Assembly: GCA_046598045.1 (NCBI GenBank)
Contig: JBKJJJ010000174.1
Coordinates: 42,148 to 106,147 of the forward strand
Length of the DNA: 64,000 bases
Direction: 5' to 3'
Source of the DNA: Candidatus Eiseniibacteriota bacterium
GTDB taxonomy: Bacteria > Eisenbacteria > RBG-16-71-46 > DASYSL01
Shown: positions 1,041 to 16,325 of the stretch, one piece after another
How positions within the stretch are numbered: the stretch's first letter is position 1
Layout of the letters: each line of letters opens with the position of its first letter
Position numbers and translations under genes: made by a program
Notes under the pieces: model-generated
Database searches by the model: none
Seen by the model: only the letters and a program-made list of their open reading frames with translations
Told to the model about the DNA's origin: nothing

Positions 1041-1319
1041 ATGGCGACCAAGAAATCCACCGGCAAGAAGACCCGACGCACGACGATGCGTTCCAGCACC
1101 GGCACGAAGCTGTACGCCGTGCGCGACGCCTCCGGTAAGTTCAAGGACATCCAGACCTACAAGCGCGCCCAGGGCGCCGACATCAAGCGCAGCTCGGCCG
1201 CGGAATCCGGCGGGAGCAAGAAGCTCGCGAAAAAGAAGGCTGCGAAAAAAGCGGCTGGGAGAAAAAAAGTCGCCGCGAAGAGGAAGGCGACGAAGAAGCG
1301 CGCGGCAAAGCGCAAGTAG
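1041..1319 (+). CDS. Lysine/alanine-rich histone H1-like (HC1/AlgP-like) DNA-binding protein
   Basis: ATG at 1041 preceded by AAGGAG. The C-terminal KKAAKKAAGRKKVAAKRKATKKRAAKRK repeats are typical of bacterial histone H1-like tails. Stop codon is TAG. Confidence 0.6.
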   Translation: MATKKSTGKKTRRTTMRSSTGTKLYAVRDASGKFKDIQTYKRAQGADIKRSSAAESGGSKKLAKKKAAKKAAGRKKVAAKRKATKKRAAKRK

Positions 1320-1338
1320 CCCGCGCCGCAGCATGCGA

Positions 1339-1378
1339 AAGGCCGCCGAGCCTCTGGCCCGGCGGCCTTGTTCGTTGT
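1339..1378. terminator. Bidirectional GC-rich hairpin terminator between convergent genes
   Basis: Perfect 10-bp inverted repeat AAGGCCGCCG ... CGGCGGCCTT followed by GTTCGTTGTGG, lying between the + gene ending at 1319 and the - gene ending at 1398. Confidence 0.4.
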
Positions 1379-1397
1379 GGTTCCCCGAGCTTGCGTG

Positions 1398-2774
1398 TCA
1401 GGGCGCGTGAAATGTCGGCTTCCCCGGCGTGCCCTCGTTGGTGGCGACCTGCGGCAGCCTCTCGGGGCCGTCGTCGGCGTCCACCCAGCGCACGCCCTTG
1501 GAGCACGGGCAGACCGAGTCGGTCTTGCGCTTCAGCACGGGCGACTTCATCGCGGCCTGCTCGCTCGTCACCTCGCCGGCCGCGACCTTCCGGATCAGGT
1601 CCCGGTACTGCATCATGTCCTTGCTCGCGAGGTATGCCGCCGGCAGCACGCGCGCGAGGTGGCGGACGTACTCCTCGACGTCGGCAATCGGGTCGCCCTC
1701 GACCGACACCATGCGGTACGCCGGCTCGCCGCGGCGGCGAAAGAACTCGCGGTGCGGCATCTTGAGGATCTCGTCGTAGGTCGTGCCCTCGATCGTGGAA
1801 CGCTCGCGCAGCAGCGTGGCGAGCATGCGCTCGATGTCGTCCGGCGACTTCGACGCGTAGCGCGCGCGCAGGAAGCGCAGGTTGAGGTCGTGCAGCAGCT
1901 TCTTGACCTCGTCGTAGTACTTCGATTGCGCCTCGCGGTTCTTCATGTCCTTGAAGCCGAGCTTGATGTTGGTGTCGCCGCCGCGCTCGTCGCCGAACAT
2001 CTCGAGCCCGCGCGGTACCCACTTGTTGATCGCCATCTGGATCTGCTCGGGCGTGATGAACGCGTCGCCCTGGGCGGCGGCCTCGAGCCAGCGCCGCATG
2101 GGCACCACGCCGGCCGCGAGGTGGAACGCCTCCTCGCGCAGCATCGGCGGCATCGACTGGGCGAACGGGCGGTAGGCGCAAACCTTCTGCATCGAGAGCT
2201 GGTACTTGCCCACGCGGTCGATGATGCCCGAGAACACCACGTTGTCGACGAACGAGTCGTAGGGGAGGTTGAACGCCTCGAGCACGTGGCTGCCGGTCTC
2301 CATCTGCAGCACGTCCTCGACCATGTCCTCGGTCTTGACGCCGGCGAGCTTCTCCCAGTTGCGGCTCGTGAGCATGTGGAACATCTGGTAGCCGTGGCGC
2401 AGTTCCTCGGCCATGACGCGCAGCACCCAGAACTTGTCCTGGTCCGACGGCGAGCGCTCGAGCGTCACCTGGTGCTGCTGGATCGAGCCGAACTCGGTCG
2501 AGGCCTGGGCGCGGATGATCGCGAGCAGGTGCTTCGCCGCGTCCTCGGTCAGCTCGCTCGGGTCTTCGGCCTTGGGCTGGCCCTGGTGCTCGCCGATCTC
2601 CTGCGTGCGCGACGTCGAGAGGTCGAGCTTGGCGCACAGACAGAACGCATCGTCGGCGGGGAAGTGCTTGTCCCAGTACTTGTGCAGGATCGGCAGGTCC
2701 TGGAAGTTGTGCTTCACCCAATGCGCGATCGCGTCTTCGTACTTCTTGGGAATCTGCGTGGTCTCGACGTTCAT
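1398..2774 (-). CDS. Diiron oxygenase of the PaaA/BoxB family (benzoyl-CoA 2,3-epoxidase subunit B-like)
   Basis: 458 aa. Two E-x-x-H diiron motifs (VMAEELRHGYQMF and MLREEAFHLAAGV) and overall resemblance to BoxB/PaaA-type ferritin-like oxygenases. No boxA or boxC partner is in the window. Confidence 0.55.
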   Translation of the reverse strand: MNVETTQIPKKYEDAIAHWVKHNFQDLPILHKYWDKHFPADDAFCLCAKLDLSTSRTQEIGEHQGQPKAEDPSELTEDAAKHLLAIIRAQASTEFGSIQQHQVTLERSPSDQDKFWVLRVMAEELRHGYQMFHMLTSRNWEKLAGVKTEDMVEDVLQMETGSHVLEAFNLPYDSFVDNVVFSGIIDRVGKYQLSMQKVCAYRPFAQSMPPMLREEAFHLAAGVVPMRRWLEAAAQGDAFITPEQIQMAINKWVPRGLEMFGDERGGDTNIKLGFKDMKNREAQSKYYDEVKKLLHDLNLRFLRARYASKSPDDIERMLATLLRERSTIEGTTYDEILKMPHREFFRRRGEPAYRMVSVEGDPIADVEEYVRHLARVLPAAYLASKDMMQYRDLIRKVAAGEVTSEQAAMKSPVLKRKTDSVCPCSKGVRWVDADDGPERLPQVATNEGTPGKPTFHAP

Positions 2775-2783
2775 CGCGCTCCC

Positions 2784-3236
2784 CTAGCCCAGTTTCTGTT
2801 CCAGCGCCGTGAGCGCGCTGGGTCCGAACCCGACCGCCTTGAGGAAGGTCGCGGTGTCGGTCTGCCCGGCGTCCACGAACGTGCGCATCGTGCGCGCGCC
2901 CGACGCCTTGAAGTGCCCGGCGAGCGCGTCGAACATCATGCGCCCGATGCCCTTGCCGCGCGCCGCCGGGTCGACCCCGAAGCGCTCGATCCAGCCGCTG
3001 GTCTCCTCCAGCCCGAATTCGCCGCCGCGCAGGTCGCCGAGCATGAAGCCCACGACCTCGCCGCCCAGGTCGGCGACCCGGGAGGACTCGGGGTCGCGCC
3101 GCAGGTAGTAGGCCACCCGGTCCTCCCAGAAATCGGGGCGATAGCGCCCGGTGACCTTCTCGTCGATCCGGGTGATTGCGTCGATGTCCGTGTCGGACAG
3201 CGGACGAATCGTGATTTCGGGGGCCACGGCCGCCAT
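2784..3236 (-). CDS. GNAT family N-acetyltransferase
   Basis: Internal ATG at codon 155 of track ORF 2784..3698, with AGGAGG upstream. Acetyl-CoA-binding motif V-x-x-x-x-R-G-x-G-I-G (RGKGIGRMMFDAL). TAG stop. Confidence 0.7.
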   Translation of the reverse strand: MAAVAPEITIRPLSDTDIDAITRIDEKVTGRYRPDFWEDRVAYYLRRDPESSRVADLGGEVVGFMLGDLRGGEFGLEETSGWIERFGVDPAARGKGIGRMMFDALAGHFKASGARTMRTFVDAGQTDTATFLKAVGFGPSALTALEQKLG

Positions 3237-3465
3237 GAACGTCCTCCTTGGGGAGCGCCAGGAACGAGTCCAAAATACCACATTGGGCGGGCTTGCCGCA
3301 GCCCCGGGCGGGCCGTGATTCGGCACTTGCGGGGGCGGGGCCGCAATGGCTAACGTCGTCTTGACGAGGAGGTGGGTTTTCGGGGGCTCCTCCGCAAGCC
3401 ACCGAGTGGGGCCCGTACACCGACGGGCCCCGGCCCGCCTCCTTCCTTTTCTCCGGATCACCCCC

Positions 3466-4272
3466 ATGACCCACGCGCCATCCCCGGATACCGCGAACAC
3501 GGTTCGCCTCGACGTGCGCGCGCACATCGCGTGGCTGACGATCGATCGCCCACCGCTCAACATCCTCGACATCCCGACCAATCGCGCGCTCGCGGCGCAG
3601 GTGCGTGCGCTCGCCTCGCGCGACGACGTGCGCGTGGTCGCGCTCCAAGGCGCCGGGACGCGGGCGTTCTCGGCCGGCGTCGAGATCGCGGACCACACGA
3701 AGGAGCGCGTCGGGGCGATGCTCGAGGCGTTTCACGGAGTGTTTCGCGCGCTGCTCGAACTCGGCCGGCCCACGGTCGCGGTCGTGCGCGGCGCGGCGCT
3801 CGGCGGCGGCTGCGAGCTGGTGGCATTCGCCGATGGGGTGATCGCGAGCGAGTCGGCGACGTTCGGGCTGCCGGAGATCGTGCTCGGGTGTTTCCCACCG
3901 GTCGCGGCGCTGGTGCTGCCGGCGGTCGTGGGCGCGCACCACGCCGCCGAGTTGCTGCTCACCGGGGACCCGATCGACGCGCGCCGGGCGCTCGCGATCG
4001 GGCTGGTCAACGAGGTCCTGCCCGACGCCTCGTTCGACGCGGCCGCGGAGGCGTTCGCCCAACGCTTCGCGCGCCACAGTGGGGCCGCGCTTGCTCTGGC
4101 CCACGAGGCGATGCGGCCCGCCGCGCTGGGCGGGCGCTCGCGCGAGGAGTTCCTGCGCGAGCTGGCCCGGATCGAGGCGCTCTACCTGGAGCGCCTGATG
4201 GCGACGCACGACGCGAACGAGGGGATTGCCGCGTGGCGGGAGAAGCGTCTTCCTACGTGGTTAGATCGCTGA
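3466..4272 (+). CDS. Enoyl-CoA hydratase/isomerase (crotonase family)
   Basis: Start MTHAPSPD at the internal ATG of ORF 3346..4272. Crotonase signatures AFSAGVEI and GAALGGGCELVAFADGVIASESATFGLPE. Confidence 0.8.
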   Translation: MTHAPSPDTANTVRLDVRAHIAWLTIDRPPLNILDIPTNRALAAQVRALASRDDVRVVALQGAGTRAFSAGVEIADHTKERVGAMLEAFHGVFRALLELGRPTVAVVRGAALGGGCELVAFADGVIASESATFGLPEIVLGCFPPVAALVLPAVVGAHHAAELLLTGDPIDARRALAIGLVNEVLPDASFDAAAEAFAQRFARHSGAALALAHEAMRPAALGGRSREEFLRELARIEALYLERLMATHDANEGIAAWREKRLPTWLDR

Positions 4273-4423
4273 GATCAGCTCGGAGTGTCCTCCTTGGGGC
4301 CCGCGTACAATTGCGTTGCAACGTCCGATATCGTTCAGCACAGGGCATTAACCCCCGGGGCAAGGTAGACACACGGCCACCCCTGCACCCGCAGGGATGG
4401 CCGCGCTCACACCACCGCTGCAG

Positions 4424-5020
4424 CTAGCGGTAGTAGCCCTTCACGCTCCCCCAGCTCGAACGAATCGCCGGAGTTGGATCGAGTCCCCCGAACTCCACGA
4501 GCACGAACGTCTTGAGGCAATTGTTCGGCGGGCCGCAGCCCGGGCAATACACGCCGGAGCGTGCCGTCTCGTACCAGTTGCCGCCCCAGCACACCAGAAC
4601 GGTCGAGAAGGCGCCGCACGAGACGAACGTGTTCCGGCGGAAGACGATCGCTTGCCCCGCCTCCGGCCCAGTGGCCCATTTCCAGACGCCCTGATCGAGG
4701 ACACCTCCCGAGTACACCTCGGAACGCAGTTCGTTGTAGTCGAAGAGCATCTGCGCTTCCGCCTCGGTGTTGATCGTCGCCGCGTATCCCGGGAAGCCGA
4801 GGTAGCTGAGCGATGAGGCGAACTGCGCCGCGGCGTTCCACGAAAACGGCTCGCCCTCGGCGAGCGTGGCCTCCCACACTTGGTAATAGTGCCCCGTCGC
4901 GGGCAGGAACGAAGGGGGCGCGCTTCGCGCGTGCCACGTGTAGGCGTCGGCGGTCGTGAATGCGAGCATCCCCGCAATGAGAGTGCCGGTACAGAGTCCT
5001 GCTCGAACCAATGCGTCCAT
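4424..5020 (-). CDS. Secreted C-type lectin-like domain protein
   Basis: Signal peptide MDALVRAGLCTGTLIAGMLAFTTADA. CTLD-like pattern GHYYQVWEATLAEGEPFSW...FASSL...LATINTEAEAQ...GVWKWATG plus C-terminal Cys pairs. Confidence 0.5.
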   Translation of the reverse strand: MDALVRAGLCTGTLIAGMLAFTTADAYTWHARSAPPSFLPATGHYYQVWEATLAEGEPFSWNAAAQFASSLSYLGFPGYAATINTEAEAQMLFDYNELRSEVYSGGVLDQGVWKWATGPEAGQAIVFRRNTFVSCGAFSTVLVCWGGNWYETARSGVYCPGCGPPNNCLKTFVLVEFGGLDPTPAIRSSWGSVKGYYR

Positions 5021-5116
5021 GGTGTTTCTCCTCCTGTTGGAATCCGACGGCGGTGCTGCGGTGGATCACGCCCAATGGGCGCGAGTTGGGGGGAAAGTGG
5101 GTGTGGAAGGCGCCCC

Positions 5117-8100
5117 TTACCTAGAGCCCACGGCGACGAACGCGCCCCAGCCCTTCGGGTGTGTGCTGGCGTGGTTCTTCCGTCGGGACTCGATCATTGC
5201 GATCGACGCGCGGCGTGCGGCCTGCGTGAGGTCGCCATGCGCCGGTAGGTAGCCATTGTAGAACTCGCCGATCCAGATGCGGGTCTGCAGGTCGTCCACC
5301 CGCCAGAGGCTCATCACGAGCGAGCGGGCTCCCGCAAGTTGGAATGCGCGGCGGAGGCCCATCATGCCCTCGCCGGCCATGACGTCCCCAACCCCGCTCT
5401 CGCAGGCCGAGAGCACGGCGCACCGCGCCTTCGACAGGTCGAGCGCGCTGATTTCCTCCGCCGTGAGGATGCCGTCGTCGCCGGTTCCCTGTCCGCGCCG
5501 GTTTGCACCGGCGAACACCAAGCCGGACCGACGGAGGGGGTTGGGTTCCTGGCTCGATGCCGACTCGCGGCGTTGATCGACAACCTGCGGTCCGCTCGAT
5601 GACGGGCTGCAGTTGTCCCCGAGGAAGAACCCATGACTCGCGACATGGATGTGTGCGCATCCCACCGCCAGGTGCTTGAAGGCGGTCTCTGTCGCTGCCT
5701 TCCCCATGAGTTGGTGCACGTTGCCGCCCCCTGCACGCCGCCAGGCCGCGGTGGTCTCGTCCGCCTCGACCGCTGTCTGCGCGAGCGGGTGGAACCGCTC
5801 GAGCGCGAAGCGAGCGCAGTCGGGCGCCGCGCCTCGGTAGACGCCACGAGATGAGAGCAAGGCCGGGAACGCCTTGGTCGGCGATTCCGCCGGGGCGGCG
5901 CCATCGAAGTCGACGTTGCCGACGACCAGCACCCCGCTCCCCGTGGCCGCCTCGGTGTTGCGCGCGACGAGGTCGCGCTCGCAGGTCTGAGGCGCAAAGA
6001 CCGGGCCCGTCTCCTCGAGGTACTTGCCGCCCTCGACGGGCAGAGTCCCAAGGTTGATCAATTGCAGGGAGCCATCAGGGACGACGTAGAGGACTTTTGG
6101 GGATCCGAGAGCGCCGGCGACCGGATCCCACACCGCCTCGCGCAGCCGTCCAGCCGCGAGCCGGTACGAGGCTTCGCCCGCGGACATCGAAGCCGAGTCC
6201 GAGGTGGCCTGCCGGTGCCACTCCGCAACCCTCGAGTCGATCCCGGCGGCGTCCCCGAGCAGGATGAGCCGGGGAGCGCCGCCCGGCGTCAGGACGAACG
6301 CCGCATACGATGCGATGCGACGAGCGATCTCGTGGCGCGCGTCGCCATGCGGCCCGCGGCGCAGGTACCTCACATAGGAGAGGAGCGCGGTCCCGGGCGG
6401 GAGCGTTCTAGAGACCTCGGTGAGTCCGGCGCGGCTGCGCGCGGAATCGAGCGCGAACCGAGCGCTCAGTCCACCCAGGCGTCGCTCGATCGCCTCGACA
6501 CTCCGCCTTGCGCTGTCGACACGCGCCTCGAAGTGCTCGATCGTGTCGTCGCCGGGTCCCTCTTCATGGAGCGTGGCCAGCGCTCCTGATTCGCGCGCCA
6601 ACTCGGAGGCGACCCGGACCGTGGTGGTGTCCGTGCTGGTCCAGGTCGCGCGCAGTCGCTCGGAGATTCCGTCGAGCACGAGGCTGCGCGCGCGGATCAC
6701 CGCGTCCCATGCCGTGACGACGCGGTCGGGCGCATTCGCGAGACTGATCGCCAGGTCGGTGCCAGATGGGCGAATCGAGGCGTAGTCGAGCGCCTCCCGC
6801 TCGGACAATCCTCGCAACGAGACGCGTAGGTGTTCGCGCCCCACGTTCTCGGCCTCGAGCGCGTAGCGGAACGCGTTAGCCGAATCTCCCATGTCGGCGA
6901 GCAGCCCCGAGAGCGCATCGCAGCTCTGCGCATAATCTGGGTGCTCCATGCCCAGCGTCGCCTTCCGCATCGAGAGCGCCCGTTCGTAGTCCCGGCGCGC
7001 GTCCGAGTAGTCGCCCAGGGCGTGCTCGACCTCGCCCAGATTGTCGAGCACGTGCGCCGTCATGACGTCGTCACCCGGGGACGTCTTGGACCACGCGGCA
7101 AGCGCGGTCTGGTAGCGCGTTTTTGCGAGCTCGAGGCTGTCCTGCATGAACGCGACGTAGCCCAGGTTGTCCCCGACTCGTGCGAGCTCCGGGTGACCCG
7201 GCGGATAGGCCTTGATCCAGATTGCCTGCGCGTGCAGGTACAGCGTCTCGGCCGCTGCGAAGTTGCCGAGCTCGCGCTGCGCGTTGCCCTCGTTGTTGTA
7301 GCTGCTCCCAACCGCCGGATGCCCCGGAGGCATGCGCTCGATGAAGATCGCGCGCGAGCGTTCGTACATCGGGATCGCCTCGGCCTGGTCGCCGAGACGC
7401 CGCAGCGTGCCGGCAAGCCCGTGGAGACCCTTGCCGACGTTCATGCCGGTCGGACCCTCGAGCTTCTCCCACGTCCTCAGGACGTCCTCGTAACGCGCGC
7501 GCGCCTCGACGTACTGGCCGAGGTCGTTCATGAGCACTGCAAGGTTGTAGGTATTGCCGGCGACCTCGCCCGGATCCGCGCCGGGCGTCGCACGCCACAC
7601 CGAGTCGGCCTGCACGTACGCCGCGCGCGCGTTCGTGAAGCCCTGCGACAGGTAATAGAGCCTCCCGACGCCGTTGAGATTCCGCGCAAGGCCGCTTGCG
7701 TCGTTCGAACGTTCACGGATCCGTCGCGCGCCGGTCTGCGCGGCGATCGCAGGCGGGAAGTCGAAGAGCACTCCGAGCACGCCTGCGAGCTGCTCGAGGC
7801 TGGTCGCGAGCTCAGGAGACCCCGGCTGCAGGCGCTGCCGGATCCGGACGCTGCGTTCGGCCAGCGCGCGCGACGCGGAGTCGCGCACCGAGCTGCGAAC
7901 GAGCCGGCCCTCGAGGACGAGATCCTGCACGCCAGCCAGCTCGATCGACGCCGTGTCCGCACGAGACTCGAATTCACCGATGACCTTCTGGCCGAGTGAG
8001 TCTGCGGGCGCGAAGCGGCGGGATCGAACCTGCGCGCGGAGCGAGTCGACCTCGGCGGGCGACGCAAGTGCGGTCCGGGGCGCCGGGGCGAGCGCCAGGG

Positions 8101-8128
8101 CAATCGCCAGGATCCATGCGCGCCTCAT
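5117..8128 (-). CDS. Periplasmic/secreted TPR-repeat protein with C-terminal CHAT (caspase-like) protease domain
   Basis: Signal peptide MRRAWILAIALALAPAP from M10 of track ORF 5117..8155. Many TPR-like helices through the middle. CHAT dyad motifs HVASHG and LSACESG near the C-terminus. Confidence 0.8.
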   Translation of the reverse strand: MRRAWILAIALALAPAPRTALASPAEVDSLRAQVRSRRFAPADSLGQKVIGEFESRADTASIELAGVQDLVLEGRLVRSSVRDSASRALAERSVRIRQRLQPGSPELATSLEQLAGVLGVLFDFPPAIAAQTGARRIRERSNDASGLARNLNGVGRLYYLSQGFTNARAAYVQADSVWRATPGADPGEVAGNTYNLAVLMNDLGQYVEARARYEDVLRTWEKLEGPTGMNVGKGLHGLAGTLRRLGDQAEAIPMYERSRAIFIERMPPGHPAVGSSYNNEGNAQRELGNFAAAETLYLHAQAIWIKAYPPGHPELARVGDNLGYVAFMQDSLELAKTRYQTALAAWSKTSPGDDVMTAHVLDNLGEVEHALGDYSDARRDYERALSMRKATLGMEHPDYAQSCDALSGLLADMGDSANAFRYALEAENVGREHLRVSLRGLSEREALDYASIRPSGTDLAISLANAPDRVVTAWDAVIRARSLVLDGISERLRATWTSTDTTTVRVASELARESGALATLHEEGPGDDTIEHFEARVDSARRSVEAIERRLGGLSARFALDSARSRAGLTEVSRTLPPGTALLSYVRYLRRGPHGDARHEIARRIASYAAFVLTPGGAPRLILLGDAAGIDSRVAEWHRQATSDSASMSAGEASYRLAAGRLREAVWDPVAGALGSPKVLYVVPDGSLQLINLGTLPVEGGKYLEETGPVFAPQTCERDLVARNTEAATGSGVLVVGNVDFDGAAPAESPTKAFPALLSSRGVYRGAAPDCARFALERFHPLAQTAVEADETTAAWRRAGGGNVHQLMGKAATETAFKHLAVGCAHIHVASHGFFLGDNCSPSSSGPQVVDQRRESASSQEPNPLRRSGLVFAGANRRGQGTGDDGILTAEEISALDLSKARCAVLSACESGVGDVMAGEGMMGLRRAFQLAGARSLVMSLWRVDDLQTRIWIGEFYNGYLPAHGDLTQAARRASIAMIESRRKNHASTHPKGWGAFVAVGSR

Positions 8129-9123
8129 CGTGTGCGCACTGAGAGTTGGAACCACGAGTCCTGGAAGTCCTTCGTCGGATTTGCGGCGCTGGCAATCCGG
8201 AGCCGGTACAGGCCCGACACGAAGCCGTGCTCGCCGCGCGGGACCGCGATGCGCGGTGTGTCGGCGAACGAGCTCAACCGATCCTCTCGCCGAACCAGCA
8301 GGACGTGACTTGGATCCACAACCGTCACGATCACACGGCCATCGGGATCGAACGGGGGCAGGTCGAACTCAACGGGGATCAGGTCGACGCCCGCATGGAT
8401 CGTGTCGGCCGGGGCGCCCGGCGCGCGATCGGCGGCCGTGCGGATCGGGGTGCCGACGATCGCGGCGGACAGGTTCGGGGTCGATGGGGTCTCGACGGGA
8501 GCCGGCGGCGGGCTCACGGGGGCGGGTGCCGGCGTTCCGTGATCGACCGGCGCGGGCGCAACCGGCGTACCGGTCGCCGGGCCGCCCGGCGCCGGGCGAT
8601 TCATCGGGTTCACGACCAGGATCAGCACCGCGGCCGCCGCGGCGACCAGCCCGCCGAAGGCGCTGCCCGTCCAGAATTCCCGCGATCGCCAGCGCGGCTG
8701 CGGCATGGGCACGACACGGGCCGTGTTCTGCGACAATAGGTCGAGCACCTCCCGGGACGGCTCGAGCCCGGCAACGTGCTTCAATTCGGGCGCGTGCCCG
8801 AGGTGCTTCAGGATTGCGCGGCATTCCTCGCACTCCACGAGGTGGCGCCGCGCGAGCTCGCGCTGGAGCCCGCGCAACGCGGGAGCCTGCTCGCCCCAGT
8901 GAATGATGAGTGGTTCGGGCAGGTGCCGCGACGGAGCGGCACCCGAGGCTCGTGCACGCTCGAGGACCTCGCGGCATTCGTCGCACAAAGCGGCATGCCG
9001 CTCGACCCGGTCGTCGTCGGCCGGGTCCAACAGACCCGCCGCGAACGGCGCGAGTTGACGCCGCGTCCAGTCGTGGTCGTCAGGCGCCGGCGTCACGCGG
9101 ACTCCAATCGCGAGCGGAACCAC
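8125..9123 (-). CDS. Anti-sigma factor, zf-HC2 type, single-pass membrane protein
   Basis: N-terminal H-x3-C-x2-C motif (HAALCDECREV) and a second HLVECEECRAI. One TM helix (LVAAAAAVLILVV), then a Pro-rich periplasmic domain. Sits immediately downstream of and overlapping the ECF sigma gene. Confidence 0.65.
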   Translation of the reverse strand: MVPLAIGVRVTPAPDDHDWTRRQLAPFAAGLLDPADDDRVERHAALCDECREVLERARASGAAPSRHLPEPLIIHWGEQAPALRGLQRELARRHLVECEECRAILKHLGHAPELKHVAGLEPSREVLDLLSQNTARVVPMPQPRWRSREFWTGSAFGGLVAAAAAVLILVVNPMNRPAPGGPATGTPVAPAPVDHGTPAPAPVSPPPAPVETPSTPNLSAAIVGTPIRTAADRAPGAPADTIHAGVDLIPVEFDLPPFDPDGRVIVTVVDPSHVLLVRREDRLSSFADTPRIAVPRGEHGFVSGLYRLRIASAANPTKDFQDSWFQLSVRTR

Positions 9124-9716
9124 TGACCGAGGGGTCCGTCATCTGACTTGCAGATCGTGCGGGCGCGGTCGCGGCAGCGCACGGACCGCTGACGCACGGT
9201 CGCGTGACTGAGTCCCAGTTTCTCGGCGACTAATCGCAGGTTGAGCGTGGTGAGCCAGTGCTCGAACAGTTCCCGGCACTGCCCCCCGAGCGACCGCATG
9301 ATCTCCTGGATGTAGAACTGCGCGTCCTCGGGGCGTAGCTCGTCGTCGTCGAGTTCGGGCAGTGGCATGGGCAGGTCCTTCTCCGGCAGCGGCTCTGTTC
9401 GAGGGCGCCAACGCATGCGATCGATCGCGACACGCCTGGCGATCTCCACCTCGAGTGCGACCTGGTTGTCGATCGGCCCGCGCAGGACGGCGCGCATCAC
9501 CCGGATGCAGGCATCCTGCGCCAGGTCCTCGAGCTCGTCGGGACCCACGAGACGTGTCAGGTTCGCCGCGATCACCCGCCTCATACGCGCCCTCGCCTCC
9601 TCCCAGTTCACCTGATCGAGCGGGCCGCCGCCTTCGGGCGACCGGTTGTCCAGGGTCATATCGGACCGATCCTCGGGTCTGGGAGTGGAGTCGGGCTGCG
9701 GGCAGGGGTGTGACAA
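9093..9716 (-). CDS. RNA polymerase ECF-type sigma-70 factor
   Basis: Sigma region 2 (DLAQDACIRVMRA) and region 4 helix-turn-helix (LRLVAEKLGLSHATVRQRSVRCRDR). The true start may be the internal ATG at about 9659. Confidence 0.75.
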   Translation of the reverse strand: MSHPCPQPDSTPRPEDRSDMTLDNRSPEGGGPLDQVNWEEARARMRRVIAANLTRLVGPDELEDLAQDACIRVMRAVLRGPIDNQVALEVEIARRVAIDRMRWRPRTEPLPEKDLPMPLPELDDDELRPEDAQFYIQEIMRSLGGQCRELFEHWLTTLNLRLVAEKLGLSHATVRQRSVRCRDRARTICKSDDGPLGQWFRSRLESA

Positions 9717-9898
9717 CTCGGCCGTCTAGTATCCGGCAGCGGTCCCCCGGAATCAATCCCGTATATTGCCAAGCCTATTCCTGCTAGGGGATTGCCGCCG
9801 GCGCGACAAGCTAACAAATTCCCGCGTCACACTTGGCCGACCGCTCGACCTCCTCCGCGAAGGTCACTGGATCACCGATCCGTCCCGAGGAGCTCGCG

Positions 9899-10714
9899 AT
9901 GAACCCGAACTGGATTGAGATCGCTCCGATCGTCCACTCCCGGACCGAATTCGTCTTTCGAGACGTGCGTGGCAGGGAGGAATTGCTGCAGGTGCTTGCG
10001 CTGAGGTACCGCCTCTACTCGACGACTCCGGGCATGTGCCGGCTCGACTCGGTCGACCACGCGACCCGGCTCGACTTCGATACCTATGACCTGAACTCAC
10101 GGCACTTCGGATTGTTTGCCCGCAACGGATCGGACGACCGCCTGGTCGGCACGCTTCGCGCCACCGGAACCCGGACGGGGCCGATGGCGGGCTTGTTGCG
10201 GGAGATCGCCTCCGCCCACCCGACGCTCGAGGCGCGAGTCGCGAAGGGTACGACCGAGCTCCTGCCCATGCTGGCGGACCTCGCCCAAGCCCCGGCCGTA
10301 CGCGAGGCCATCCGGTTGCGCAGCGGGGAGGAGATCGCCGAGCCCGGGCGGCTGACGGTCGACCCGCGGGTTCGTCTCGCCGCGGGGCGGCGCGGGATCC
10401 GGCTGTCGCACTTCCTCGTGCACTGCGCGCTGGCGGTGGGCTGGGATCAGCTCGGGCTCGATCGGGTCTACGTCTATTGCAACGAGCGACTGGATTCGTT
10501 CTACCGCCGCGTCGGGTTCTATCCGCTCCCGGGAGGCGAGTCGACGTTCCAGCAGAAGCAACAAATCCCGATGGTCGTGTTCCAGGCGACCCCGGCCTCG
10601 CTCCCCGTCGACCTGCGCCCTGAGATCGAACTCTGCGCCCGGCAGTTGCGCGAACGCGGCGAGGCGATTCGCGAGCTTCTCGAGCCGACGGAGACCCGCT
10701 GCGCCGCAGCCTAG
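9899..10714 (+). CDS. GNAT-fold N-acyltransferase of the autoinducer-synthase-like superfamily (LuxI / FeeM N-acyl amino acid synthase / OlsB-like)
   Basis: ATG at 9899 with GAGGAG upstream. Motifs LRYRLY ... RLDFDTYDLNSRHFGLFA ... RLVGTLR match the R-x-x-V/L-F/Y, E/D-x-D-x-Y-D and RL-x-p-T landmarks of LuxI-like acyltransferases. Confidence 0.5.
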   Translation: MNPNWIEIAPIVHSRTEFVFRDVRGREELLQVLALRYRLYSTTPGMCRLDSVDHATRLDFDTYDLNSRHFGLFARNGSDDRLVGTLRATGTRTGPMAGLLREIASAHPTLEARVAKGTTELLPMLADLAQAPAVREAIRLRSGEEIAEPGRLTVDPRVRLAAGRRGIRLSHFLVHCALAVGWDQLGLDRVYVYCNERLDSFYRRVGFYPLPGGESTFQQKQQIPMVVFQATPASLPVDLRPEIELCARQLRERGEAIRELLEPTETRCAAA

Positions 10715-11378: not shown

Positions 11379-11472
11379 GTTAGCCGGTCACAGATCCGAT
11401 CGGGCACGACTTCCCAGCATACCGGCGGATCGAGCCCCGGATCGCGAACGAGTTCAACAGTGGAGGTGGTCG

Positions 11473-12309
11473 ATGCAGGGAGTCCTGAAGTCCAGATGGG
11501 TGGTTGCGGTGCGCGTCGCACTCCTGTCGACGGCGCTCATTCTCGGGGGTTGCGGAAAAGACAAGATCTCCGATCCCCAGACGGTGGTGACTCCGGGTGG
11601 CGGGACGGATCCGGTTCCTCACGCGGTGATCGGCGCGAATCGATACACGGGTGACGCCCCGTTCGTCGTGAGCTTCAGCAATCAGTCGACCAACGGCACC
11701 AGGTGCGAGTGGTCGTTCGGCGATGGCGCGAGTTCCACGGAGTGGAGCCCGAGCCATACCTACACCAGCCTGGGGCGCTATACGGCGAACCTTACCGTGT
11801 ACAACTCGAAAGGCGCGACTTCGACCGACCAGCGTGTCGTCACGGCGTACTTGCTCGTCCGACCGTTCGGGGTCGGCGGTAGGGTCTTCGGCCCGTACTA
11901 CCCCAGTCTCACCCAGGGGGACTGCGACTTTGGCGGGCATGGCCCGGACGTCTGGATGGACGCCAAGCTGTCGGTCGCGTCCAGCAATCCCGCCCGACTC
12001 CAACTCAACGCATCGATGCGCGCGGTCGAGACCCAGGCCGACTGGACGACCGGTGTCGTGAATGTGGCCACCATCATCTACACGGCGCCGTCAGGAACGC
12101 GGATCGAAACCCTTCCCGACGTCAGCGAGCTCCACGAGGCGTATCAGGACAACGGATGGGGTCTCGCGACGACCGCCGGCAATGCGCTGGGGAGCTTCAC
12201 GTGGAAGGGCGATACGGATGGAAATGACGTCTGCGGAACGACCTCGGACGACACTCAGATGTTCGTGAACATCAAGGGCATTCAGCTGCGCCTGGGTCCG
12301 AGCCAATGA
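11473..12309 (+). CDS. Lipoprotein with PKD domain
   Basis: ATG at 11473 after GGAGGTGG. Lipobox LILGGCG. PKD-like segment FVVSFSNQSTNGTRCEWSFGDGASSTEWSPSHTYTSLGRYTANLTVYNSKGATS. Confidence 0.65.
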   Translation: MQGVLKSRWVVAVRVALLSTALILGGCGKDKISDPQTVVTPGGGTDPVPHAVIGANRYTGDAPFVVSFSNQSTNGTRCEWSFGDGASSTEWSPSHTYTSLGRYTANLTVYNSKGATSTDQRVVTAYLLVRPFGVGGRVFGPYYPSLTQGDCDFGGHGPDVWMDAKLSVASSNPARLQLNASMRAVETQADWTTGVVNVATIIYTAPSGTRIETLPDVSELHEAYQDNGWGLATTAGNALGSFTWKGDTDGNDVCGTTSDDTQMFVNIKGIQLRLGPSQ

Positions 12310-15317: not shown

Positions 15318-16325
15318 ATGCCACTACGAGGCGCCTGCTCGGTCGTTGCCTGCGCGTTCGGCCTGTTGGCGGTTGGCCCGACGCTCTCGAGCGCGCAGTG
15401 TACCGGCGACGTCACCGACGACTTCGATGGCTCTACGCTTGGTCCGTTGTGGGCGAACGTTTCCCAGTGCGCAAGTAGCGTCACCGAGAGTGATGGGGTC
15501 CTCCATCTGTTCAAGCCCGACAACGGCCTCGGGTTCGCGATGGTACGTCTTGCGCCTGACAGGCTGCTGTGCGACGACTTCGATCTCGCAATCGACTACA
15601 CGCTGAGCATGCCGCCGGCGCAGGACATGGGAGGCAGCATCCATGGGACGCAGCTCTATACCGCGACCGGGACACTGGTCGCTGGCGCAGAGCGCTATAG
15701 GCAGGGGAGTACCTCATGCGTCTCGCCGCAGTATGACTCCTACAAGTTCTACACGACCGTGCCGGGGTGTCCGACGGATGCCATCTACCTTCCCACCTCA
15801 GCCGCGGCCGGAAGGTTTCGGCTCATCCGAACCGGCGGGACGATCGAAGCCTTCTATTGGAATGACACAGACTGGGTCCTGAGGATGAGTCGACCGATTA
15901 CGACGGCAGCTGTCTATCTTCAGCTCAACAGCGGCACGAACTTTAGCATTTCTCCGGGGTTGAAGGCCGCCACCGGCGGCACGTTCGACAATTTTCACGT
16001 GGGCCTGCCGAACCTGGCTGGTGTCGCGCCCGGGACCGGAGCTTCTGGGCTGGCCTGTTCCGTGCAGCGAAATCCGATGCCGCGCTCGATTCCGGTGCGG
16101 TTCGTCTTCGAAACTCCGCGTGATGGGCGAGTGACTCTGCGGATCTACAACGCAGGCGGAGCTCTTGTCGGGACGGCCCTGGACGAGGACCTTCCTTCGG
16201 GGGGTCACATCGCGAGCTGGAGTTCGACCTCTTCCGATGGCAGTCGGCTGGGCAGCGGTGTCTATTTTGCTCAGCTCGTCGCGAGCGGGCAGCGGGTTTC
16301 CACGCGAGTCGTCCTGCTTCCGTAG
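15318..16325 (+). CDS. Secreted concanavalin-A/LamG-like domain protein with C-terminal T9SS type-A / FlgD-Ig-like sorting domain
   Basis: ATG at 15318 after GAGGAAGGA. Signal peptide MPLRGACSVVACAFGLLAVGPTLSSA. DDFDGSTLGPLW jelly-roll motif. C-terminal RVTLRIYNAGGALVGTALDEDLPSGGHIASWSSTSSDGSRLGSGVYFAQL. Confidence 0.65.
   Translation: MPLRGACSVVACAFGLLAVGPTLSSAQCTGDVTDDFDGSTLGPLWANVSQCASSVTESDGVLHLFKPDNGLGFAMVRLAPDRLLCDDFDLAIDYTLSMPPAQDMGGSIHGTQLYTATGTLVAGAERYRQGSTSCVSPQYDSYKFYTTVPGCPTDAIYLPTSAAAGRFRLIRTGGTIEAFYWNDTDWVLRMSRPITTAAVYLQLNSGTNFSISPGLKAATGGTFDNFHVGLPNLAGVAPGTGASGLACSVQRNPMPRSIPVRFVFETPRDGRVTLRIYNAGGALVGTALDEDLPSGGHIASWSSTSSDGSRLGSGVYFAQLVASGQRVSTRVVLLP

Follow-up and report, generated by a model that had tools for sequence, protein, structure and literature searches.

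A conserved ECF sigma factor, anti-sigma factor and exported TPR-CHAT protein module in Candidatus Eiseniibacteriota, a possible split counterpart of DdvS/DdvA

We describe a three-gene module in a stretch of 64,000 nucleotides (nt) from a Candidatus Eiseniibacteriota bacterium (assembly GCA_046598045.1, contig JBKJJJ010000174.1, positions 42,148 to 106,147 of the forward strand), referred to throughout as the window. The module encodes a sigma factor of the extracytoplasmic function (ECF) type, a membrane-spanning anti-sigma factor, and a protein with a signal peptide in which an array of tetratricopeptide repeats (TPR) precedes a caspase-like CHAT domain. The sigma factor, the anti-sigma factor and the exported TPR-CHAT protein form a conserved unit that recurs in other genomes. 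Our proposal, held tentatively and with slightly less than even confidence, is that this unit is a three-part envelope switch of the DdvS/DdvA type in which the sensor-protease resides on a separate polypeptide.

Reading the open reading frames (ORFs) of the window revealed four frames between positions 4424 and 9716, all on the minus strand. The first three are coupled to one another: the GTG start of the anti-sigma gene overlaps the stop codon of the sigma gene (4 nt, GTGA), and the ATG of the CHAT gene overlaps the stop codon of the anti-sigma gene (4 nt, ATGA). The CHAT start was identical in an independent gene caller, and the 4-nt coupling of anti-sigma and CHAT genes seen in the window recurs in the related loci L091, L005 and L020. 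A gap of 96 nt separates the CHAT gene from the fourth frame, ORF4.

The sigma ORF (9093-9716) is open back to a TTG at 9716, and its likely start is the ATG at 9659, as in the public gene call (P0128). The resulting length of 188 residues and the sigma2/sigma4 content are those of ECF (group 4) sigma factors, which contain only sigma2 and sigma4 and are about 170-200 residues long. Searched as a single sequence, the protein narrowly missed the curated cut-offs of Sigma70_r2 (E=1.6e-4), Sigma70_r4 (E=2.5e-3) and TIGR02937 (E=1.5e-9). Nine of the ten members of its family matched Sigma70_r2, and a profile built from ten orthologs (alignment A9) matched the structures of the ECF sigma factors SigE, SigL and SigW across sigma2 and sigma4 (positions 17-179; E=1e-9 for SigE). 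On the strength of this profile alignment to solved ECF sigma factors, the gene product is classed as a divergent ECF sigma factor. A search for close sigma homologs returned a single ortholog (58% identity, in L083), and the family was for this reason traced with the anti-sigma factor. The A9 alignment shows two invariant cysteines within sigma4 (Cys128 and Cys162, numbered on the 188-residue protein); this is unusual for an ECF sigma factor, and the pair could form a redox or metal site.

The anti-sigma factor (P0130) matched the zf-HC2 family (PF13490) above the cut-off (E=6e-5). It carries two HxxxCxxC motifs, H34/C38/C41 and H85/C89/C92, which lie about 50 residues apart and are both conserved in 120 family members; Pfam picks up the first motif but not the second. 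The protein crosses the membrane once, and its single predicted helix is followed by a Pro-rich linker and then by a domain of about 100 residues. The family comprises 308 representatives at E<=1e-3, with lengths of roughly 300-350 residues. We assume that this zinc-binding anti-sigma (ZAS)-type protein would bind and inhibit the ECF sigma factor encoded next to it.

The third protein contains about nine TPR_12/TPR_10 units (TPR_12, E=2.5e-40) and a CHAT domain (PF12770, E=1e-51) that occupies residues 668-1011 of the 1012-residue ORF. Its N-terminus, MRRAWILAIALALAPAPRTALA, with SP following the predicted cleavage, reads as a Sec-type signal peptide, and a crude signal-peptide test was passed by at least 76 of 120 CHAT homologs, with inspection suggesting more. 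Conservation of both residues of the putative catalytic dyad, His832 and Cys909, is at least 90% among 30 full-length homologs, and in 11 homologs they do not vary at all. The AlphaFold model had a predicted local distance difference test (pLDDT) score of 85 and a predicted TM-score (pTM) of 0.83. Comparing this model with solved structures using Foldseek ranked DdvA first (3e-14), followed by Csx29 (1.6e-13) and separase (6.4e-13); a second method scored Csx29 at 21.5, separase at up to 19.7, and DdvA, the protein with the highest sequence identity (17%), at 16.9. The nearest solved TPR-CHAT relative therefore differs by method, and the model places the window protein in the TPR-CHAT structural class that includes all three. 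The zf-HC2 domain PF13490 was found in none of the 120 closest CHAT homologs.

The preliminary description of this DNA, made by reading the sequence, had named these products as an ECF sigma factor, a single-pass zf-HC2 anti-sigma factor with a Pro-rich periplasmic tail, and a signal-peptide-bearing TPR protein ending in a CHAT domain with an HVASHG/LSACESG dyad, all encoded by tightly spaced co-directional genes. The profile match to SigE, the zf-HC2 match with its one helix and Pro-rich linker, the CHAT match with its Sec-type N-terminus and the GTGA and ATGA overlaps bear out these assignments, and the dyad proved to be conserved in homologs. That description had also taken the whole gene string to suggest an envelope signalling module, with the product of ORF4 as a secreted C-type-lectin-like member. 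The first three genes do constitute a conserved unit, whereas orthologs of ORF4 are found elsewhere (see below).

A genome scan seeded with the C-terminal 141 residues of the CHAT alignment yielded 80 loci that hold close CHAT relatives; most of these loci belong to Candidatus Eisenbacteria, Acidobacteriota and Krumholzibacteriota. An iterated ECF profile detected sigma genes in 51 of these loci, and they are concentrated directly beside CHAT: the sigma gene ends 0-2 kb upstream of CHAT in 31 cases, starts 0-1 kb downstream in 10, and lies 1-8 kb downstream in only one. The suspected association of signal-peptide-bearing TPR-CHAT genes with ECF sigma genes thus extends beyond the window. Three architectures were distinguished. 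The first, found in about 13 loci, resembles the window and consists of a sigma factor, a zf-HC2 anti-sigma factor and a TPR-CHAT protein. The zf-HC2 domain was matched in 18 of 20 candidate anti-sigma genes (that of the window and 19 from related loci), and most of the matching proteins carry a periplasmic TPR domain. The second architecture, in L050 and L069, has in addition a TonB-dependent-type outer membrane protein between the anti-sigma factor and CHAT. This inserted barrel (OMP_b-brl_4, CarboxypepD_reg and Plug; L050 2702-5998 and L069 2756-6001) is reminiscent of FecIRA-type cell-surface signalling. The third architecture contains a kinase and is described below.

Within the subfamily of the window, the position of the CHAT gene varies. 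It comes after the anti-sigma gene in L085, L087 and L091, is convergent with and abuts the pair in L083 (the locus of the sigma ortholog), precedes the sigma gene in L040, and in L064 belongs to an operon that diverges from the sigma gene. The occurrence of the same three parts in four gene orders is good evidence of a functional link. CHAT is absent from L084 and L088/L089, and L090 and L092 are too short to show whether it is present. In L088 (7944-14936), the slot after the anti-sigma gene holds genes for a 193-residue protein and a 3420-residue exported Peptidase_M10 protein rather than CHAT. One metagenome-assembled genome (MFD09779.bin.2.66) contains four paralogous copies of the three-gene module (L037, L052, L054 and L062). 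Identities of the three parts between paralogous modules are 86/79/88, 77/66/72 and about 49/43/42%, a parallel divergence of the kind that duplication of the whole module would produce.

The extracytoplasmic part of the anti-sigma family is variable apart from one position, which is nearly invariant. This position is an Arg in 113 of 120 members; the next residue is Gly (87 members) or Ser (16). It sits between the linker and the C-terminal domain, and in the window it corresponds to Arg219-Thr220. Judged by eye, most of the aligned acidobacterial anti-sigma factors show L-R-[GSTA] in the corresponding position. Because clan CD proteases, among them separase, clostripain and gingipain R, cleave behind an Arg, the conserved residue is a candidate cleavage site, with Arg219 as the putative P1 residue. 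The Arg could possibly be a protease site or a structural residue.

The third architecture combines the sigma factor and TPR-CHAT, in several orientations, with a membrane Ser/Thr kinase carrying DUF4384 and a clostripain-like C11 peptidase. All 17 kinases scanned matched Pkinase and DUF4384, and all 18 peptidases scanned matched Peptidase_C11. These kinase-type loci form a second, larger class of exported TPR-CHAT loci (Table 1). The extracytoplasmic tail of the kinases has an LRGVGGL-like motif with an Arg that is invariant in 17 of 17, and an RG[VI]GGL-like motif occurs in the disordered loop between the His and the Cys in all 19 kinase-linked CHAT proteins and in none of the 17 anti-sigma-linked ones. 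CHAT proteins are thus specialised by the type of sigma regulator encoded beside them, and loop features that track the neighbouring regulator in this manner argue for a direct functional relationship. Pair-specific covariation of kinase tails with CHAT loops was weak (p about 0.03). The kinase-type loci may mark a cascade of proteolysis outside the cytoplasm that involves a C11 enzyme specific for Arg. Pairing of ECF sigma factors with Ser/Thr kinases has been described for ECF43-like groups (PMC7826278). The kinase-paired loci share with the window an exported TPR-CHAT protein beside an ECF sigma factor, whereas the window has an anti-sigma factor and lacks a kinase or C11 peptidase. CHAT is not named in the main text of the ECF re-classification paper.

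Each of the eight window-type loci with upstream DNA (the window, L083, L084, L085, L088, L092, L040 and L064) carries a promoter-like motif, GTCAC[AG]-N15-CGAC, upstream of its sigma gene. The window contains four matches compared with 0.87 expected, three of them within 1.7 kb. In L083 a copy precedes the divergent FeeM gene (-1475), in L085 one precedes a divergent gene cut by the contig end (-116), and in L088 copies precede both a PKD gene (-4358) and an ICMT gene; further copies in the correct orientation precede other neighbouring genes in L085, L087 and L092. The motif is absent before the CHAT gene and before ORF4, and a simple scan for sigma-70 promoters and terminators returned nothing informative. 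We infer that GTCACA-N15-CGAC is the promoter type of the sigma factor itself. Read in this way, the sigma, anti-sigma and CHAT genes would form an autoregulated operon, and the divergent genes of the window, which encode a FeeM-like N-acyl amino acid synthase, an ICMT-family methyltransferase and a PKD-domain lipoprotein, would be its likely regulon, with the FeeM-like gene a probable member. FeeM-like and ICMT genes accompany homologs of the sigma/anti-sigma pair in L084 and L088/L089, and L083 has a FeeM-like gene. A PKD gene is present in L088/L089, and a gene with an Ig-like domain occupies that position in L084. The company of FeeM-like and ICMT genes suggests that the product under sigma control is lipid-like, namely an N-acyl amino acid that is possibly methyl-esterified.

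The preliminary description had matched the arrangement to no described sigma-activation pathway. This does not hold, as two known systems are comparable: DdvS/DdvA (PMC11506125) and Craspase (PMC10028731). In Myxococcus xanthus, DdvS is an ECF sigma factor and DdvA a ZAS anti-sigma factor that spans the membrane and carries TPR-CHAT on the periplasmic side, reported in 2024 (PMC11506125; PDB 8ROT, 8RW5). Signal-induced autoproteolysis by the DdvA CHAT domain was proposed as the site-1 step ahead of RseP, and the bulky TPR-CHAT region was proposed to block RseP sterically (PMC11506125). Both systems have an ECF sigma factor, an anti-sigma factor with an N-terminal zinc-finger domain, one transmembrane helix and a flexible extracytoplasmic linker, and a TPR array that is periplasmic (in the window, by prediction from the signal peptide) and leads into a CHAT domain with a His/Cys dyad; in both, TPR-CHAT is paired with an adjacent ECF sigma factor, in the window within one operon. 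They differ in that DdvA unites the ZAS domain, the helix and TPR-CHAT in one chain, whereas the window divides them between two genes and gives TPR-CHAT a signal peptide of its own. Any cleavage would consequently be in trans, between separate proteins. The window anti-sigma factor also has a second HxxxCxxC motif and a small C-terminal periplasmic domain that distinguish it from DdvA, and the TPR-CHAT sequences are 14-17% identical. Homologs of the fused DdvA type were reported only in Myxococcota and one Comamonas (PMC11506125), whereas the split type occurs in Eisenbacteria, Acidobacteriota, Krumholzibacteriota and others. A subset only of DdvA-like pairs lies near defence genes (PMC11506125). 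PADLOC matched none of nine local proteins, and a reading of the region as a defence island was dropped for this reason; the neighbours are the FeeM-like, ICMT and PKD genes and metabolic genes. The outline of the module is therefore like that of DdvA, but the defining single-chain architecture and the defence-island context are not shared. The two-gene, split arrangement was not described in the literature searched.

In the type III-E Craspase, Csx30 inhibits the ECF-like sigma factor CASP-sigma, and cleavage of Csx30 by the TPR-CHAT protein Csx29 lifts this inhibition (PMC10028731). Craspase acts in the cytoplasm under RNA guidance and in association with Cas7-11, and Csx30 is a soluble protein that is not of the ZAS type. 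In the window, by contrast, both the protease, judged by its signal peptide, and the segment that it would target are extracytoplasmic. Cas7-11 or CRISPR-type genes were not found flanking the module, and the NCBIfam CAS_III-E sigma model matched the window sigma factor at E=0.013 only.

Anti-sigma factors are classically destroyed by regulated intramembrane proteolysis, as exemplified by DegS and RseP acting on RseA and by PrsW and RasP acting on RsiW. The pathway proposed here would share with these a signal-dependent site-1 cut outside the membrane, a site-2 cut and the release of an ECF sigma factor. The classical site-1 enzymes are general serine or metalloproteases encoded elsewhere, whereas in the window the site-1 enzyme would be a cysteine protease of clan CD, with TPRs as its sensor and its gene within the sigma operon itself. 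That a periplasmic CHAT protein carries out the site-1 step is plausible.

The working model for the window runs as follows. The cytoplasmic zinc-finger domain of the anti-sigma factor would keep the ECF sigma factor inactive. The signal peptide would direct TPR-CHAT to the periplasm, and the ATGA overlap would match its synthesis to that of the anti-sigma factor, with which it would interact physically. A signal would be sensed by the TPR array, and the His832/Cys909 centre would then remove the extracytoplasmic part of the anti-sigma factor (site-1), the candidate site being Arg219. An RseP-type site-2 protease and then cytoplasmic proteases would release the sigma factor, which would transcribe its own operon and the FeeM-like, ICMT and PKD genes from GTCACA-N15-CGAC promoters. 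For the central step, in which the CHAT protease would cut the anti-sigma factor, the chances seem to us just short of balanced.

Several observations weigh against this model. The authors of the DdvA study described autoproteolysis as unvalidated, as dyad mutants behaved like the wild type and no phage-induced cleavage was seen (PMC11506125). The tie of the CHAT domain to solved structures comes from fold comparison only, with low global TM-scores (0.25-0.28 for DdvA); searches of PDB chains with the single CHAT-protein sequence and with a full-length profile returned TPR proteins only, and a CHAT-only profile gave no significant match. The Arg-Gly motif is kept in two anti-sigma relatives that have no adjacent CHAT gene (L084 and L088), and the anti-sigma factor of the window has Arg-Thr in place of Arg-Gly. 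The CHAT gene lies within what would be a sigma-dependent operon, as an output gene would. In roughly half of the 80 CHAT loci, no sigma gene adjoins CHAT. The closest full-length CHAT homolog is one of at least four TPR-CHAT genes arranged in tandem (L093, 69-17732), together with one CHAT-only gene and further TPR-repeat genes, and no sigma gene lies nearby. CHAT tandems occur likewise in L079 and L061.

The main rival explanation, which we consider somewhat unlikely, is that TPR-CHAT is an output of the sigma factor, produced as part of its regulon once it is active and serving for example in envelope remodelling, predation or defence, and not a regulator. The downstream place of CHAT in an operon that carries the sigma-type motif would be natural for such a product, as would the exported Peptidase_M10 protein (3420 residues) at the CHAT position in L088, the motif before an operon of a large secreted protein and CHAT in L064, and the many close CHAT relatives, some in tandem arrays, that have no sigma gene. 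Against this stands DdvA, in which the fusion of an anti-sigma factor to TPR-CHAT argues for a regulatory or sensory role. The recurrent 4-nt coupling to the anti-sigma gene, the CHAT loop features that follow the type of neighbouring regulator and the duplication of the three genes as a unit also speak against a mere output.

TPR-CHAT could instead be a non-cleaving periplasmic co-sensor that, in the manner of RseB, binds the extracytoplasmic domain of the anti-sigma factor and protects it against a different site-1 or site-2 protease, with the dyad used at most for self-processing. The steric block of RseP proposed for DdvA, the lack of phenotype of its dyad mutants and the large TPR array, which suggests ligand or protein binding, are compatible with this role. 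The His/Cys dyad and its surrounding motifs are, however, conserved across the family, which suggests selection for catalysis, and the anti-sigma family conserves an Arg followed by a small residue; we therefore regard a purely shielding function as quite improbable.

A third explanation gives ORF4 the part of a lectin that senses a glycan ligand and passes the signal to the CHAT protease. ORF4 adjoins the module, no terminator-like structure was seen between it and the CHAT gene, and its N-terminal signal-like segment agrees with the secretion claimed in the preliminary description. The lectin identity claimed alongside was not confirmed. ORF4 had no Pfam or NCBIfam match (Pfam was empty even at E<=10 for six orthologs), its AlphaFold model was poor (pLDDT 55), and Foldseek with this low-confidence model gave no meaningful fold match. 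The only PDB matches of the six-ortholog profile were to the C-type lectin domain of CLEC4D, in a plausible register and at a sub-threshold E=0.16, making the label a lead and not a result. Only six relatives of ORF4 were found among 5.8 billion clusters. The two orthologs with readable contigs (70% and 81% identity) lie in unrelated neighbourhoods, one beside HxlR and transposase-type helix-turn-helix genes and the other beside ATP synthase genes. No relative of ORF4 is present in the 80 CHAT loci, nor in the loci found through the sigma/anti-sigma pair. For these reasons ORF4 does not belong to the module, and the lack of conservation largely refutes the lectin-sensor explanation, which is very improbable. 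No sigma-type motif stands before ORF4, which has a good ribosome-binding site (AGGAGG) of its own. ORF4 and its orthologs (P0122-P0126) share a conserved SWGxxKxxYR C-terminus (4424-4460 on the minus strand in the window), and no other ORF of the window has an ending of this type. A G+C-rich hairpin without a T-tail at about 4373-4405 on the minus strand, just past the ORF4 stop, may be a terminator.

Finally, Acidobacteriota and related phyla are rich in ECF sigma genes (PMC7826278), so that the adjacency of sigma and CHAT genes might be accidental, but this is refuted by sigma distances sharply peaked at CHAT, by overlapping gene starts and by an association that outlasts four gene-order rearrangements.

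The coordinates of all features are collected in Table 1. A 1008-residue ORF (1183-4209, minus strand) was rejected as a spurious product of high G+C content, since it overlaps genuine genes in different frames and on the opposite strand.

Table 1. Features of the sigma/anti-sigma/TPR-CHAT region of the window, and the kinase-type loci.
Feature	Position or loci	Strand	Basis or remark
ECF-type sigma factor, divergent, 188 aa	9093..9659	-	Ortholog profile A9; Sigma70_r2 in 9/10 relatives
Single-pass zf-HC2 (ZAS-type) anti-sigma factor, 323 aa	8125..9096	-	PF13490 match, two HxxxCxxC
Anti-sigma transmembrane helix, aa 144-162	8611..8667	-	Kyte-Doolittle 19-residue maximum 2.33; position conserved in family alignment
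Arg219 codon, candidate P1 of cleavage site	8440..8442	-	Nearly invariant extracytoplasmic residue; putative role
Exported TPR-CHAT caspase-like protein, 1003 aa	5117..8128	-	CHAT E=1e-51, AlphaFold model
Predicted Sec signal peptide of TPR-CHAT, aa 1-22, cleavage between ALA and SP	8063..8128	-	Read from sequence
Putative catalytic His832 codon (HVASHG)	5633..5635	-	Conservation in homologs
Putative catalytic Cys909 codon (LSACESG)	5402..5404	-	Conservation in homologs
ORF4, small secreted protein, 198 aa	4424..5020	-	Signal-like N-terminus; adjoins module, not a conserved member of it
Motif copy GTCACA-N15-CGACTC, upstream of sigma	9688..9714	-	Candidate autoregulated ECF promoter
Motif copy GTCACA-N14-CGACCT, facing FeeM-like gene	9826..9851	+	Motif scan
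Motif copy before PKD lipoprotein gene	11387..11412	+	Motif scan
Motif copy GTCACA-N14/15-CGAC[CT], inside ORF, may be chance	16204-16230	+	Motif scan
FeeM-like N-acyl amino acid synthase / Acetyltransf_5, 271 aa from ATG 9899	9899..10714	+	Divergent from sigma
ICMT-family membrane methyltransferase, 211 aa	10743..11378	+	Adjoins FeeM in L084, L088/L089
PKD-domain lipoprotein, 278 aa from ATG 11473, lipobox LGGC	11473..12309	+	Divergent cluster
PaaA/BoxB-like oxygenase	1398-2774	-	Overlaps spurious ORF 1183-4209
GNAT acetyltransferase	within 2784-3698	-	Overlaps spurious ORF 1183-4209
Enoyl-CoA hydratase	3346-4272	+	Overlaps spurious ORF 1183-4209
Kinase-type loci, first part	L006, L009, L010, L012-L014, L018, L019, L021, L031, L033, L035
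Kinase-type loci, second part	L041, L043, L046, L048, L053, L057, L063, L067, L071, L072, L080

To our knowledge, DdvA is the only anti-sigma factor with TPR-CHAT characterized so far. Its self-cleavage is hard to prove, with the trigger unknown and protease and substrate in one chain. In the split version, enzyme and substrate are separate proteins that can be purified separately, and as a result the question of whether a caspase-like site-1 cut frees an ECF sigma factor becomes directly testable. The analysis provides candidates for the cleavage site and the promoter, and a putative regulon with an N-acyl amino acid synthase-like enzyme and a methyltransferase. The split version also indicates that the design is not confined to myxobacteria and is common, in several flavours, in abundant and poorly studied soil phyla. 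On a broader and more speculative view, which we think somewhat unlikely to hold in full, exported TPR-CHAT proteins could be a widespread and unrecognised class of dedicated trans-acting, operon-encoded site-1 proteases or sensors for ECF regulators. Such a class could target at least two types of zf-HC2 anti-sigma factor, and possibly ECF-linked Ser/Thr kinases, through a conserved site outside the cytoplasm that is formed by Arg and a small residue. It could span Acidobacteriota, Eisenbacteria, Krumholzibacteriota and others, and the fused DdvA could be a narrow offshoot of this larger, split family.

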